DNA of 62,840 bases, counting the filler, from Collodictyon triciliatum (Eukaryota): NCBI GenBank assembly GCA_043381765.1. It is 9 parts of 9 records of this genome, joined end to end, with 100 filler letters (N's around TTAATTAATTAA, not from the genome) between each part and the next. Parts side by side here need not be neighbours in the genome. Positions count along the whole stretch, not along the records: positions 33,640 to 40,259 come from JBHJMP010004345.1; positions 40,360 to 49,409 come from JBHJMP010004347.1; 7 more parts are not named here. One strand, written 5' to 3'. A program made the translations under genes and the position numbers. Numbering within the stretch: the stretch's first letter is position 1; each line of letters begins with the position of its first letter. This document shows positions 33,640 through 46,745 of the stretch, piece after piece. A model generated the notes under the pieces. The model was not told where the DNA came from. It saw only the letters and a program-made list of their open reading frames with translations, and made no database searches.

Positions 33640-40030
<6,391 letters not shown>

Positions 40031-41479
40031 GCTTGGAGCGCTTCGGTGTTTTGGGTCGAAACTGCACAGCTCCGTATACTTCATGCACAAATATATTACC
40101 AAACCGGTTGCATTTGTGTTCAAGAAAAAAAAAAAAGAAGTATAAAGAAAAGAATATAAGAGGAAAAGAGGAAAAGAGGAAAAGAGGAAAAGAGGAAAAG
40201 AGGAAAAGAGGAAAAGAGGAAAAGAGGAAAAGAGGAAAAGAGGAAAAGAGGAAAAGAGGNNNNNNNNNNNNNNNNNNNNNNNNNNNNNNNNNNNNNNNNN
40301 NNNTTAATTAATTAANNNNNNNNNNNNNNNNNNNNNNNNNNNNNNNNNNNNNNNNNNNNCTTCGCTCGCACTAATCTCCCTTTTCCAGATTCGATAATCG
40401 AATATGTAATTATTTACTGAATCATCATTTTCAATCGCCTTAACTGGATATTTCAAAATCTATACTTCGGCCAATAGACATATTTTGCACAAAATACAAA
40501 TACCAGAAAAGGGGATTTCAAATCCAATGATTCCAATCATTTACTATTAGTAGAGGCGTTCGTTGCGGATGATGGAAACGCGTTTTGTTTGATTAACGCA
40601 TTGCCGAGGTGTTTTCTTGTTTTTTTTTTCATTTTTTGATTGATTTGTTCTGTTTTGATTTGAGTTGGCCTGATTATTCCCTTCAATCCCGCTTCGAAAC
40701 TGACAACCTTGCGCTTCGATCGGCAATGATCCCGGCAAACAAACAAAAAAGCAGCCGAAGAGGGTCAAGTGCCAAAAGCCGCTGCGATTTGCAGGCAGAG
40801 TTTGTCTAAGTGTCTTCTGGTTATATTTTTATTGCACGCAGCCTGATTAATTATATGTAGTTTGACAAAGAGTGAATTCATAGAGCCGCTCTGGCCTCTA
40901 ACAAAGGAAGTCTTTGATCAGTTGGCGTTGCTTGCTTTATTTCCTTCTTGTTACCTAGCTCTGTTCTTTTATTTTATTATCTTTTCCTTTCTATATTGCA
41001 TTATTGCTGGAGGTCAGAATCAAACCACACACGACAAACTTTTTCATCTTGCTTTTTTTTTCTTTTTCTTTTTCTTCTTCTCGTTCAACCAGCAAGCAGT
41101 TGCGGTTTATGTAGTGTGCATTATTTTACTCTTTGTCGAAACATAACCGTACTTTTCGACTCTAATTCTTCCCCAAATTCTTTACTTAGCAAAAGCTGTC
41201 TTCTATCGCTACCAAAAACACAATAACCCCTTTTTTTTATATTTTTTTTTAAAAATAAGATAAAAATAACGTAATATATATAATGCAAAGCTCATCGCAC
41301 AAAAACAACGAAATAATCTCCTAAATACACATCATGTTTCCCTTTTTCTTTTTCGTCTTTTTTTTTTTTGTTTTTCATTTATATTTTCTGATCTTTAGAA
41401 AAGGATTCGTTTCAGAGTGGCTTTTTCTATTGCAGGGACGATCCTTTCTCCTGTTTCCCGTCCACTCTAAACTCCGAAA

Positions 41480-44400
41480 ATCGGTAACAAAAACTCGAGT
41501 GGCAAGAATTCGGCGTCTTCGGACGCTGGGTCAAAAAGCCGAAACAAGAAAGAATCCTCCAAGCGGGTTGAAGCAAATCAGGTTTTTCTTGCCACCCTCA
41601 TAGTACCTCCCTTGCAATATGTCCTTTTTTCTTAATGGACAGGCTCAAAACCAACACTCAATCAACCGTATTAAAATTACAGTCATTCATCTAATAAACA
41701 AATGCTTTTTTTTTTTGGTCTGGGCCGTGAACACTTCCACCATAGATATAATACTATTTATCGTCTGATATCATTTGTTCACTTGCCTTGCTCCGGCCAC
41801 TCAACGCCTATTCTTTTTTATACCAGAAACATAGCCCGTGCGAATTGATATATGCAAAAGCCTCCTCCTTCTTTTTTTTATTTTATAATTAACAATTATA
41901 CTCTGCAGACAAATGCAGCCACCCTGCCAGCACCAGCACAGCCACAGAACATCAACGTATCGCAGCTGGTGACATCAGAAAACTCTGGGAATTCTTCTCC
42001 AAGGAATGGAACGCCAAAGTCCACAGGTTCAAATTCTGCAAAAGGAGATGACTTTTCGGCACGCCCGGATCCGGTTGGCTCTTCGCCGATCTCTGATGAT
42101 GGAACTCCGGTCAAGCTAGAGAAGCTTCCTGGATTCAAAGGTACTACAGTTACATCTGGTTCAAAATAGGATTCGACAAATGCCATTCACATGAAAGACA
42201 CACCTTCTTGAATTGCAGTTTTCTTTGGCATATATATGTAAATCATTCAAGAAGGAGCGATTTCAAATAGCTAAAATCTTCATTGTTGTCTGTATCCCTC
42301 GCTTCTAGAACTTTTACCTCACACTATATTCTATTTTAAAGATCAAAGATCAATTATCATAATTACTCTGTCTAATGATTGAATATAGATGTCCCTGTTT
42401 CTGAAAGGGTTCTGCTATTTCAAAAGAAGCTTCGTCAGTGCTGTATAATTTTCACATTTGTCGATCCATCTGAAGATTCCCAAAGTCGCGATGTTAAAAA
42501 ACAGACTCTGGTAGAATTGGTTGATTACTTGAACTCGTCAAAGTCCCCATTCCCGGAACCGGTTTATCCAGATATAATGAAGATGGTAAAACAGAGAAAA
42601 ATCAGTCATCTACTTAACATTAATTTATCATTTTTCTTTCTGTCCCCCTATGCCTCTATCTTTATACCTGGCCATATGTCATCGCATTATTTTTTTATAT
42701 CGTTGATGGTAAATGGACAGATATACTGACCAAGTTTTATGAAATGAATTCCTTTCCCGCTCTGTCTCCTTCTTCCTTAGTGTTGTTGTCCTTTTTCCTG
42801 AATGAATCAAATGATGTTTTTTTTTCCCATAGCACGACGGAATAATTCATATGGTATTTTGCTAATTTATTATTCGGTTTAGTTGTCCCTTAATATTTGT
42901 CGCGCTGTTCCACCCAAACGCCCGAAAGACCCTGAAGGATTCGACCCCGAAGATGATGACCCTGTCTTAGAGGCAACATGGCCTCACTTGCAGGTATGGT
43001 CTTCCTTATGAGTTGCTTGCTTATAGTTGCAGTTTGGTATTGGTGATTGTGTTTTATTAATTTTACCTTTTCTGTTTTATTTTACCTACCTTTCTTCTCC
43101 TTTTGTATTTTAGGTTGCATATGAGTTCCTCCTGAGATTCGTCGAGTCACCTCACACAGACGCCAATATAGCCAAAAAATACTTGGATAACTCTTTCATC
43201 CTCCATGTAAACTCCATCAATCCGATATCATACACTTATATTTTAAACTATATATCACACAGCAAACAATATGATTAAGTCTAATTCGTCAACACTTTGG
43301 AATATCACCAGCTTCTCGAGCTATTCAACAGTGATGACCCTAGGGAACGCGACTATCTTAAAACATCATTGCATCGCGTATATGGAAAGGTTTTTTTTTT
43401 AAATACTTATCCTGGTTTACATACACTCTGGTGCTTCTTTGAGTAGGAAACGTATCGTAGTTTTCAACACTAATATATTGGATTATACCTGCCGACTTCA
43501 TTATCTATTTTACCTGAGCTTATCGCTGCCATTCACCAATAGTTCCTTTCCCATCGGGCGTTTATTCGAAAAGCCATCAATAATGTTTTCTACAAGTTTA
43601 TATTTGAAGAGGATGCCCAGAATGGAATTGCAGAGCTACTAGAAATTCTTGGAAGGTAATGTGTCACAATTGCCATGATTTAAAGTCTTAAAAACACATT
43701 TATCTAAATCACAGTCTTAATCAGTACATAAACCCTGATTTAATGATACTGTCTACAACCAACAGTGCCCCCTTTGATTATCGCGTACAACTTTGTATGT
43801 TCCAAGAAATTTCGTTTCTTTTTATTTATTCTTCTTACACTTCAGTATAATCAACGGCTTCGCACTACCTCTCAAAGAGGAGCACAAACAATTCCTTGCA
43901 AAGGCTTTGATACCGCTCCATAAACCTCGCTCTGTCACCATGTACCACCAGCAACTCACTTACTGCATGACGCAGTTCCTAGAAAAGGATTCCAAGTTGT
44001 CTGATATGGTCAGAATCCATCTATTAATTTTTTTCTTATGCGCTATTTTGCCCGTTGTGCAGAGTCGTTAAAGTATTTTCCACTTATCAATTAAAACCTT
44101 ACCATTTTTTTATTTGATTAAAAATTGAAGATAATTGATGAGCAACCCCTTTTTTCATTCAGAATTCTTTTAACAACTTTTCTTTCTAAAAAGATTGTAA
44201 CCGGATTGCTCAAATTCTGGCCTGCCACGAATAGCCCCAAAGAGCTTCTCTTTCTCTCCGAATTGGAAGAGGTTATCTGTGTTTATTTTCTTGAAATACT
44301 CATAAAAAGCAACCATATGAGTATAATATGCCAAATCATAATTCTCTTTTGTTAGTTTCAATATCTGCTATGAATCAAGTTTATATTCCATTCCTAAGCT

Positions 44401-46333
44401 ATTCCGCATGATTTAGATATTGGAATTGACCGATTCAAAGGAGTTTGGGCATTTTATCGAGCCACTTTTCCGAAGGCTTTCGAAGTGCATCTCATCATCT
44501 AACTTCCAAGTTGCTGAGCGTGCATTGTTTTTGTGGAATAATGAATACATATCCAGCTTGATTCAGGAACATAGAAAGATAGTACTTCCCATCATATTTG
44601 GGTCATTGTTCAAGAACTCCAAATCTCACTGGAACACGTAAATTACTCAAATGTGTCGTTATCTGTTATATATTGGTTTTGTCTGAAGTGCATGTATTTT
44701 GTTCTAATTTTTTTTTTGGCAGGTCAATACACAACCTCACCTACAACGTGCTCAAAATGTTCAATGACATGGATGCAGTGTTATTCGACGAATGCTCTGC
44801 AACATACAAAGCTGAACAAGCCAAGTAAATCAAAAAAAAACCAAAAGAAATCCAAAGAAATCCAAAGAAATCCAAAGAAATCCAAAGAAATCCAAAGAAA
44901 TCCAAAGAAATCCAAAGAAATCCAAAGAAATCCAAAGAAATCCAAAGAAATCCATAGAAATCCATANNNNNNNNNNNNNNNNNNNNNNNNNNNNNNNNNN
45001 NNNNNNNNNNNNNNNNNNNNNNNNNNNNNNNNNNNNNNNNNNNNNNNNNNNNNNNNNNNNNNNNNNNNNNNNNNNNNNNNNNNNNNNNNNNNNNNNNNNN
45101 NNNNNNNNNNNNNNNNNNNNNNNNNNNNNNNNNNNNNNNNNNNNNNNNNNNNNNNNNNNNNNNNNNNNNNNNNNNNNNNNNNNNNNNNNNNNNNNNNNNN
45201 NNNNNNNNNNNNNNNNNNNNNNNNNNNNNNNNNNNNNNNNNNNNNNNNNNNNNNNNNNNNNNNNNNNNNNNNNNNNNNNNNNNNNNNNNNNNNNNNNNNN
45301 NNNNNNNNNNNNNNNNNNNNNNNNNNNNNNNNNNNNNNNNNNNNNNNNNNNNNNNNNNNNNNNNNNNNNNNNNNNNNNNNNNNNNNNNNNNNNNNNNNNN
45401 NNNNNNNNNNNNNNNNNNNNNNNNNNNNNNNNNNNNNNNNNNNNNNNNNNNNNNNNNNNNNNNNNNNNNNNNNNNNNNNNNNNNNNNNNNNNNNNNNNNN
45501 NNNNNNNNNNNNNNNNNNNNNNNNNAGAAAAAAAGAAAAAAAGAAAAAAAGAAAAAAAGAAAAAAAGAAAAAAAGAAAAAAAGAAAAAAAGAAAAAAAGA
45601 AAAAAAGAAAAAAAAGAAAAAATAGTGAGACAAATACCAATTGATTTTTCTCTTAAAAATAGATCAAACAAAGATATGACTGAAAAATAATAACCACGTT
45701 TCGCATTTAGGATTCGCACAACTGAAACGGCAAGGAAAAAGAACTGGCAACAACTCGAGGTCATCGCCAAGAAAAATGCTGCGCTCGGGGTGGTACCTAT
45801 CCTTAACGCAGAGACCCTTTCATTCAACGGAGCGGGCCCAGCGAGTACATTTTACAAAGAAAAAGCGAAAAAAAAAGGAAAAAAAAAGAAAAAAGAAAGC
45901 TATTTACCTTCTCCGCATATTGAGACCAAACATCCCCTCCCCAATTCCTTCTTTCTTGGTGGCACACGCACAATCACATATCCAAATTATTTTTAATACT
46001 TGCGCCGTCAACTCCAACTAGTTGCGCCTGATGCTGCTCAGGAAGTCCCTCAAAAGACAGAGGCAGAACTGGAGGCAGATGAAGACCTCGACCAGTTGCT
46101 GAAGAAGGTTTTTACTTGTCTTTTGTTTCTATTTTTATCCATATTTGAATGGAACCTCTGTGAAGTTATTGCACAGACATATATAAGCTTGAATAGTGGC
46201 TTAACATTATCTCATTCTCGAACAGCCTCAAGAATTCCCAGCACCAAAGGGCTCCATTCGACGCAAGTCCATGTTACCCCATGACTCTGCAGTTATGCAG
46301 GCTCTGTCACAACACCAAAGTCCCGACTCTTAA
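41480..46333 (+). CDS. PPP2R5: PP2A regulatory subunit B' (B56 family); start codon unresolved (candidate AUC at 41480)
   Basis: [109 protein letters not shown], and C-terminal [15 protein letters not shown] 46331-46333. One intron spans an N gap. Confidence 0.96.
44847..44965. repeat. (AAATCCAAAG)n array running into an N gap, intronic in B56
   Basis: Directly visible. Confidence 0.95.
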
Positions 46334-46745
46334 GAGCCAATCGTTGTTTTCCCTCCATTTCTCCAAGCGCTTCACTCTTAAAAAGGATAACCAGTCGATA
46401 AAAAGAAAAAAAGAAAAAAAAAAAGAAAAAGAAAGAGGAGGACAGACGAAAGTTTGTCTCACGCTTTTTGGGACCAACAAACACACAAAATCACAAACGA
46501 ACAGAATAATCAGACATCACCCTTCACCTTATTTCCTCAATCTTTTACTCCTCAAACAATATGAATGAAATCAATAAATAATTTACGTGTTTCTCAAATG
46601 CTATGCAAACTTGGCCCTTTTCTGCCTTATCCCTTCAGTTGCTTTTTTCAATACCTTTTTAACGCAAAATCAAATGACTATAAGCTGCCTCATATGGCCA
46701 TGAGGGTCAATTCAGTTCGGACAATCTTAAATCAGCCGTGCATAT

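Follow-up and report, generated by a model that had tools for sequence, protein, structure and literature searches.

The window, a stretch of 62,840 nucleotides from the Collodictyon triciliatum genome, carries a gene for a PP2A B56 regulatory subunit, three exons of which were matched to the B56 profile (PF01603) in a Pfam search at 60–95 bits against a cut-off of 25. The host is a deep-branching protist of the collodictyonid type, with Diphylleia rotans its closest named relative; exon 10 shares 81% identity with a protein of this species, and exon 3 shares 73% with Diphylleia P0121. RNA evidence came from contigs of runs X1, X2 and X3, all of one study, which we presumed to be RNA. In the resulting 11-exon model, an ATC at 41480 heads an open frame of 496 codons, and all ten introns are RNA-supported. 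At 44825 the RNA has a loose end whose sequence corresponds to the exon at 45711, and with the tentative C-terminal exons the protein would comprise about 605 amino acids. Coordinates are reported in Table 1.

Table 1. Features of the B56 gene, in positions of the window
Feature	Position	Strand	Evidence and remarks
Upstream ORF, 27 codons, rival source of an ATG	40726–40809	+	Inside the predicted outron; joined to exon 2 in no contig
Candidate spliced-leader acceptor, pyrimidine-rich tract and AG (41434–41435)	41420–41435	+	Sequence, and analogy with paralog L021; outside RNA cover
Predicted 44-nt 5' leader, no ATG; in-frame TAA 41468–41470	41436–41479	+	Last upstream ATG at 41334
Start context AAA-ATC-GG	41477–41484	+	AAA-A(TC/CG)-GG common to three paralogs
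Coding exon 1, candidate AUC start, Gly2-Asn-Lys-Asn-Ser6-Ser (41483–41500)	41480–41581	+	RNA over 41485–41581
Intron 1, GT-AG, phase 0; holds ATG 41852	41582–41908	+	Joint in X1 and X2 contigs
Exon 2, low-complexity linker, C-terminal KLEKLPGFK; no in-frame ATG	41909–42140	+	RNA
Exon 3, B56 profile positions 6–72; Met175 near its 3' end	42389–42585	+	Pfam PF01603; Diphylleia P0121
Exons 4–7, B56 domain	42883–42993, 43114–43206, 43312–43389, 43543–43655	+	All joints in RNA contigs; open frame
Exons 8–11, B56 domain	43846–44008, 44194–44271, 44417–44637, 44723–44824	+	All joints in RNA contigs; open frame; Pfam matches on two of exons 4–11
Tentative C-terminal exons, past N gap	45711–45844, 46022–46107, 46226–46334	+	Remainder inferred from P0121

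The first in-frame methionine of the RNA-supported model is codon 175 (42577–42579), deep inside the conserved domain as the first-pass annotation had proposed, and the model holds no in-frame AUG 5' of conserved coding sequence (the first five nucleotides of the frame lie outside RNA cover). Because exon 3 sequence 5' of Met175 matches the profile and resembles P0121, exon 3 is very likely translated. In the annotation of the Diphylleia ortholog, the protein counts as complete and begins at a methionine equivalent to residue 115.

The annotation had tentatively placed the start at the ATC, following an in-frame TAA at 41468, with AAA on its 5' side, G on its 3' side and neither ATG nor AG between stop and start; the sequence agrees on each of these points, and exon 1 reads as described, from xGNKNSSGK to RVEANQ at the donor GT (41582), with a basic stretch (8 K/R to 3 D/E). 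Two donors had been offered for the splice into the B56 frame. Contigs of both X1 and X2 join 41581 to 41909, whereas no such join is listed for the donor at 41567, and the acceptor AG, placed slightly off, occupies 41907–41908. The contigs begin at 41485 (X2) and 41494 (X1), X2 thus stopping 3 nt short of the ATC, and the stretch 40360–41484, being without true RNA contig cover, speaks neither for nor against any 5' end. An AT-AC intron near the start is unsupported, the X2 contig having no loose letters at 41485 and that of paralog L021 being continuous. Of the other AUG sources that had been envisaged, ATG 41852 is spliced out with intron 1 in both contigs, which also run through the AGs inside coding exon 1 without a joint, and an exon with ATG 40726 joined to 41909 is absent from the aligned contigs, whose cover starts at 41485. 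Exon 2 contains four out-of-frame ATGs, the first of which (41913, 19 codons) is also the first AUG after the ATC. Alternative AGs at 41397–41417 would likewise give an AUG-free leader.

The near-cognate start ahead of a myristoylation-type N-terminus gains support from paralogs. AAA-ATC/ACG-GG followed by Gly-x-x-x-Ser is present in four of the seven B56 genes examined, in each case on a first exon with a phase-0, in-frame splice. These are the window gene and three paralogs on other contigs, which have ATC (L021), ATC and ACG (L022) at this place. The four form one clade with Diphylleia P0121 and P0123 (UFBoot 96, in a tree that took in 33 of 241 homologs). Their exon-1 peptides (GNKNSS, GGGLSS, GGLISR and GAKHSS), compared by eye, keep Gly2 and Ser6 constant while residues 3–5 all vary, and in none of the four genes does an AG directly precede Gly2. 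In the three paralogs, an in-frame AUG follows 30–47 codons downstream of the near-cognate start. The first downstream AUG lies in the +1 frame in all four genes, which chance could well produce and which we do not count as evidence. Paralog L024 has an ATA-Gly-x-x-x-Ser that was discounted as a start, because inspection by eye showed an open frame running on upstream and an ATG exon ahead of it; paralog L025 had no callable start. Among metagenome contigs scanned for relatives of P0121, 0 of 161 candidates were confirmed.

For L021, a spliced X1 contig spans the ATC. Its 5' end is a foreign leader, attached at an AG that lies 11 nt ahead of the codon; a second contig has its 5' end 520 nt upstream, with four ATGs in the interval. 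The start evidence for this gene comes from one contig, and no X3 contig aligned to L021. The X1 contig carries one differing letter, its position not listed, and no difference is listed at the ATC. Since the shorter X2 contig, which does not extend to the ATC, also carries one differing letter, the simplest reading would be a shared strain difference near the exon joint.

The pattern of AAA, near-cognate codon, Gly and Ser6 goes beyond chance. On both strands of the window (123,064 nt) it matched twice, and at 36 other loci of the same genome (272,172 nt) five times; four of these seven matches are the B56 starts, leaving a background of about three in 395 kb. Without AAA there were 33 matches in 123 kb, or about one per 4 kb by chance; one such match lies inside an ordinary coding frame in L024. 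As controls, all 11 callable starts of Arf and G-alpha genes were ATG, none preceded by AAA (14 of 23 Arf and 5 of 8 G-alpha loci had no callable start), and AAA preceded the ATG in 0 of 60 leader-bearing mRNAs. ARL1-like L051 seemed to start at ATA, but this was dismissed: a GT-AG intron with ATAG at its end splits ATG-G off from the remainder. No significant start-enhancing hairpin was found behind the four B56 starts (z −1.06 to 0.10). The gene, like its three paralogs, is likely to use a near-cognate codon (AUC or ACG) as its translation start.

The foreign leader of L021 is not peculiar to that gene. An AUG-free sequence of 36 nt stands at the head of 64 of 64 matching public contigs; these have 60 distinct 5' ends, with the leader no more than 13 nt from the end of the contig, and the L021 X1 contig comes in addition. 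In 61 of the 64, the first ATG, 0–80 nt past the joint, opens the longest frame. The genome holds 19 leader copies with a GT donor, some adjoining U2 genes, and none was found near the L021 start or in the window. In a consensus fold of 11 copies, the donor is paired and a U5 tract follows stem II; the copies being nearly identical, covariation is seen at 0 of the 24 pairs. With GCUUUUUGC in place of the default AU4-6G, the Sm-like site is non-canonical, and an Rfam search of the leader gave no match. One leader shared by many mRNAs of the lineage is likely to reflect spliced-leader trans-splicing, which would likely remove upstream AUGs. The acceptor is demonstrated for L021 (AG at L021:4079–4078), and by analogy the leader may be joined to the window gene mRNA at the AG ending at 41435. 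The literature searched held no description of this process in CRuMs.

The N-myristoylation consensus calls for Gly2, a permitted residue 3 and Ser or Thr at position 6, which all four B56 exon-1 peptides fit, and an N-myristoyltransferase (NMT) gene is present (PF01233 on G000:C2495). None of the 241 fetched B56 homologs starts M-G-x-x-x-S/T, so these homologs offer no precedent for a lipid anchor; titles, abstract openings and passages searched held no myristoylated or non-AUG-started B56. Myristoylation and membrane anchoring of the window B56 are predictions from its motif.

We propose, with fair confidence, that the window gene encodes an AUC-started, Gly2-myristoylated and membrane-held B56, its upstream AUGs likely cleared by a trans-spliced leader. 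A pre-mRNA outron with several AUGs would be exchanged for the 36-nt leader at an AG near the start, as seen for L021 and presumed at 41435. The scanning ribosome would then take AAA-AUC-G as its first good candidate and initiate with methionine, as conservation and known near-cognate initiation suggest. After removal of the methionine, NMT would acylate Gly2, and the basic stretch could serve as a second membrane signal. Ribosomes that missed the AUC would reach out-of-frame AUGs first, so that full-length protein would depend on the weak start, and the AUC may throttle translation. In the three paralogs, the downstream in-frame AUG could yield a second, unanchored form. The arrangement would have arisen in the ancestor of one B56 clade within Diphyllatea.

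Among other readings, the least improbable, though still unlikely, keeps the AUC/ACG start with an unmyristoylated N-terminus that acts as a basic targeting signal, is acetylated or forms a Gly degron, or has the weak codon do no more than lower dosage. The motif is short and absent from the 241 homologs, and passages of PMC13082882 describe unacylated Gly N-termini as degrons in human cells; against this, the genome encodes NMT, and constant Gly2 and Ser6 around varying residues 3–5 are what selection for NMT recognition would be expected to leave. We think it distinctly improbable that exon 41436–41581 is noncoding and the AUG comes from elsewhere, be it ATG 40726 or another upstream exon spliced to 41909, an ATG micro-exon, or Met175. 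This genome does place ATGs on tiny first exons (ARL1-like L051 and RPL5), the 40726 ORF has a weak phase-0 donor, and the paralogs have their downstream in-frame AUGs. Yet both contigs use exon 41485–41581 and pass its AGs, no AG directly precedes Gly2 in four genes, the L021 leader is joined directly upstream of the ATC, and a Met175 start would remove Pfam positions 6–70; the conserved AAA-near-cognate-Gly-x-x-x-Ser would also go unexplained.

Another reading takes the ATC for a misassembled or rare-allele ATG in an ordinary AUG-started, myristoylated B56; as RNA ends 3 nt short of the codon, it is excluded only indirectly. Position 41482 lies outside contig cover and the assembly is fragmented (14,576 contigs), but errors at the same codon would be needed on three other contigs, with the identical substitution in two. 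Since the paralogs repeat the near-cognate start and spliced L021 RNA, whose strain differs elsewhere, runs across its ATC without a listed mismatch at that codon, and with every control start an ATG, we give this reading very little weight. Less credible still is editing of the start codon to AUG in the mRNA: ACG becomes AUG through C-to-U editing in plant organelles, a route that could apply to L022, whereas ATC would need C-to-G editing, for which we know of no enzyme, and for the L021 contig no alteration of the codon is listed.

Beyond the AUC-started, myristoylated B56 itself, we tentatively suggest, as a possibility we hold to be rather less probable than its alternatives, that in Diphyllatea trans-splicing rids the leader of every AUG and leaves the weak AUC/ACG codon as the only route to membrane PP2A-B56, with start-codon stringency acting as a dial on the amount of PP2A at membranes, and that this was kept in four duplicates. 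A lipid-anchored B56, if true, would be a new way of targeting PP2A. Near-cognate B56 starts also escape gene finders, as the Diphylleia annotation illustrates. If the leader reflects trans-splicing, then CRuMs, which sit next to the base of Amorphea, also have the process, and this bears on whether it is ancient or arose repeatedly. The leader further offers a ready primer with which full-length mRNAs of a poorly sampled lineage could be recovered from cultures and from environmental RNA, opening the start-codon claim to direct test.

Spliced-leader trans-splicing is described in euglenozoans, dinoflagellates, Perkinsea, Paulinella, cryptomonads and several animal phyla (PMC7986045, PMC7346339, PMC6053224, PMC12582326, PMC5619915), and CRuMs are not among the lineages listed in the passages of the first four. 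As in those systems, a common short 5' exon stands on unrelated mRNAs, with an AG acceptor, an outron, multicopy genes, a GT donor predicted to pair in stem-loop I and a candidate U-rich Sm-like site. The leader sequence and the Sm-like site differ, and the genes lie in inverted arrays with U2.

For the start codon, AUC in yeast ALA1 reaches about 20% of the activity of AUG, and ACG about 50% (PMC2909995); AUC starts carry methionine, and the A-rich yeast context matters chiefly for non-AUG starts (PMC5666671). According to the same papers, yeast GRS1 (UUG) and ALA1 (ACG) and human PTEN-beta (AUU) resemble the present genes in having a near-cognate codon in an A-rich context 5' of the next in-frame AUG, and their extensions carry a localisation signal, which in the window B56 would be the predicted myristoylation site. 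Unlike these, the B56 codon is mostly AUC, weak in yeast, and is kept in four paralogs, the window gene has no usable downstream AUG, and the hairpin that follows the PTEN-beta start has no significant counterpart.

Within the PP2A B56/B' family, the window gene shares the domain and stands apart from the fetched homologs in its N-terminus. Conserved non-AUG codons as the main or only start of a gene are rare. A close parallel is Hck p61, a mammalian Src-family kinase isoform that is myristoylated and starts at CUG. There, as predicted here, the Gly2 myristoylation site comes into being through the non-AUG start; family and codon differ, and Hck also has an AUG-started second isoform, whereas the window gene appears to have none.

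Profile searches placed Pfam B56 above cut-off in three exons of the window's gene, whose first exon has a single DNA match in the assembly and whose closest named relatives are Diphylleia rotans proteins (81% identity; Diphyllatea, CRuMs). All 10 GT-AG introns are spliced out in the assembled contigs of two RNA runs from one study (X1 and X2), bearing out the first-exon junction (41581–41909) proposed in the first-pass annotation. That annotation's reading of the first exon, in which neither ATG nor AG lies between the in-frame stop and the candidate AUC start, agrees with the sequence, and the next in-frame Met does fall inside the B56 domain, at codon 175 of the 496 codons open from the ATC. 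Because exon 3 (Pfam positions 6–72, 73% identity to the ortholog) is conserved yet lies 5′ of Met175, translation very likely begins upstream of exon 3. RNA cover begins 3′ of the ATC. Of nine other in-frame near-cognate or AAG/AGG codons in exons 1–2, none combines A at −3 with G at +4. Upstream of the gene lies a divergently oriented open frame that by eye is WD40-like.

Coordinates of features in the window and at related loci of the C. triciliatum assembly
Feature	Locus	Position	Sequence	Predicted N-terminus
Divergent neighbour	window	39019–39486 (−)
Predicted leader acceptor	window	41434–41435 (+)	AG
In-frame stop	window	41468 (+)	TAA
Candidate start	window	41477–41485 (ATC 41480–41482, +)	AAA-ATC-GGT
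RNA cover begins	window	41494 (X1), 41485 (X2)
Hairpin	window	41508–41531	UUCG loop
First intron	window	41582–41908	GT donor
Candidate start	L020		TCAAAA-ATC-GGG	xGGGLSSRR
Candidate start	L021	4066–4064	TCGAAA-ATC-GGC	xGGLISRKS
X1 cover	L021	3964–4079
5′ end, second X1 contig	L021	4597
Candidate start	L022		ACAAAA-ACG-GGG	xGAKHSSS
ATG-Gly frame	L025	829–860		MGSRSK
ARL1-like start	L051	443–650	ATG-G, then intron
Leader RNA gene candidates	L059, L064–L066, L163–L173	contigs C4254, C5890, C532, C3106 and others
Donor-less leader copies	L057, L058, L060, L061, L062, L063

Sequence searches recovered seven B56 genes with 5′ regions in the genome, a count that leaves aside two short contigs resembling L023. 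A comparison of first exons among these genes revealed a near-cognate codon before Gly-x-x-x-Ser in three paralogs (L020, L021 and L022), each with a first exon of 27–34 codons, a phase-0 donor and a stop-free splice into the B56 frame. A at −3, −2, −1 and +1 and G at +4 and +5 are identical in all four genes. The background rate of the pattern (AAA, near-cognate codon, Gly, Ser at residue 6) is about 3 in 395 kb. The paralog L023 has an ordinary ATG start (MFKKKF), like Diphylleia P0126, and L024 has an ATG exon upstream; the frame 5′ of the divergent paralog L025 is a possible first exon. Near-identical second copies on short contigs (L016 and L004 for L023, L142 for L135, L034 for L035) are either allelic haplotypes or recent duplicates.

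A midpoint-drawn LG+G4 tree of 40 sequences (384 columns) split the four near-cognate genes, together with Diphylleia P0121 and P0123, from the rest with UFBoot 96, and the window's gene paired with P0121 (UFBoot 97). The P0121 annotation begins at a Met matching residue 115 of the window's protein, without the LEKLP motif, which would fit a missed upstream start. We regard the feature as real: in one B56 clade the near-cognate start is conserved and generates a predicted myristoylation site.

The N-myristoyltransferase consensus is M-G-x-x-x-S/T, and a gene for the enzyme is present in the genome. No such N-terminus was found among 241 fetched B56 homologs, eight of which begin with MG. Callable starts of eight Arf-family and three G-alpha genes were ATG-Gly in 11 of 11, none with AAA preceding it (no start could be called at 19 further loci); therefore a near-cognate start is not general to myristoylated proteins or to the assembly. 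One of these 11 has an intron directly after ATG-G. Start codons on tiny first coding exons, as in L051 and in RPL5 (L132), which begins right after the acceptor, can imitate a non-AUG start.

At L021, an X1 contig with intron 1 spliced covers the ATC and runs on into 21 letters foreign to the locus. The X1 piece has one differing letter, its place within the piece not given, as does the X2 piece, which ends before the ATC. These 21 letters have 39 matches in the assembly at ≤1 mismatch (reversed control, 0). The L021 ATC lies 11 nt behind the leader joint and the first in-frame ATG 104 nt behind it; the window's ATC lies 44 nt behind its predicted acceptor. A second X1 contig on L021, carrying what is presumably a template-switch adapter, marks a 5′ end 520 nt 5′ of the joint; four ATGs fall in this interval.

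The leader end followed by GTATG occurs at 19 places. These donor-bearing copies lie in inverted arrays at a spacing of ~2.5 kb, some of them beside U2 snRNA genes. In the candidate leader RNA genes a GT donor follows the 36-nt exon, with stem-loops and a U-rich tract; in the predicted fold of 11 copies, stem I includes the donor and is followed by a second stem and the U-rich tract (no covarying pairs). Rfam gave no match to them. The six dispersed donor-less copies retain ~15 nt of upstream gene sequence and are followed by an AG repeat, the sequence after which is common to four; they may belong to a mobile element with leader genes either at its head or as its target.

Searching public contigs with a 23-letter leader tag gave 64 matches; in every one the tag lies ≤13 nt from the contig end and an mRNA-like frame follows. 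The 5′ ends are of 60 distinct kinds. Their longest 5′ reach gives the ATG-free leader exon, 36 nt, AACCGATCAAGTAGCTAACACTACCTAATCAAAGAG. In 61 of the 64 the longest frame begins at the first ATG, and the joint-to-ATG distance has a median of 9.5 nt and a maximum of 80 nt across the distinct ends. These full-5′-end contigs (L067–L130; GC 49–69%) from uncultured relatives are a resource for gene starts of the lineage. By sequence their source is a related but different organism, a placement drawn from two of the 64: a porin with Diphylleia rotans as sole relative at E 1e-10 (51%), and an RPL5 with 77–93% identity to exons of our assembly. A spliced leader on mRNAs of this lineage is apparently undescribed: no description for Collodictyon or Diphyllatea was found in the mostly open-access literature searched, and CRuMs are unnamed in the available portions of articles on leader criteria and distribution (PMC7986045, PMC7346339, PMC6053224, PMC12582326).

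We propose that the leader is trans-spliced to the window's transcript at 41435 and that initiation would occur at the AUC, with Met removal then permitting myristoylation. In the two-signal model, myristate and basic residues together hold a protein at the membrane, and the B56 N-terminus may be anchored in this way. Output would probably be low or regulated. In each of the four genes, the first AUGs met by ribosomes that pass the AUC (ACG in L022) would be out of frame. In-frame AUGs follow 30 codons on in L020, 31 in L021 and 47 in L022, and these three paralogs could also make an unanchored protein as a second form; the window's gene could not. The window's 10-bp hairpin, ~28 nt 3′ of the ATC, is not significant against shuffles (z −1.06), and a start-enhancing hairpin was unsupported in the four genes by the shuffle test.

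In yeast, AUC has about 20% and ACG about 50% of AUG activity (PMC2909995); AUC starts carry Met, and in yeast an A-rich context counts chiefly at non-AUG starts (PMC5666671); unacylated Gly N-termini are degrons in human cells (PMC13082882). The near-cognate start and the spliced leader would each surprise their own specialists. Among the matches listed in the literature surveyed, no non-AUG-started or myristoylated B56 was found; a non-AUG-started, myristoylated isoform is known in Hck p61.
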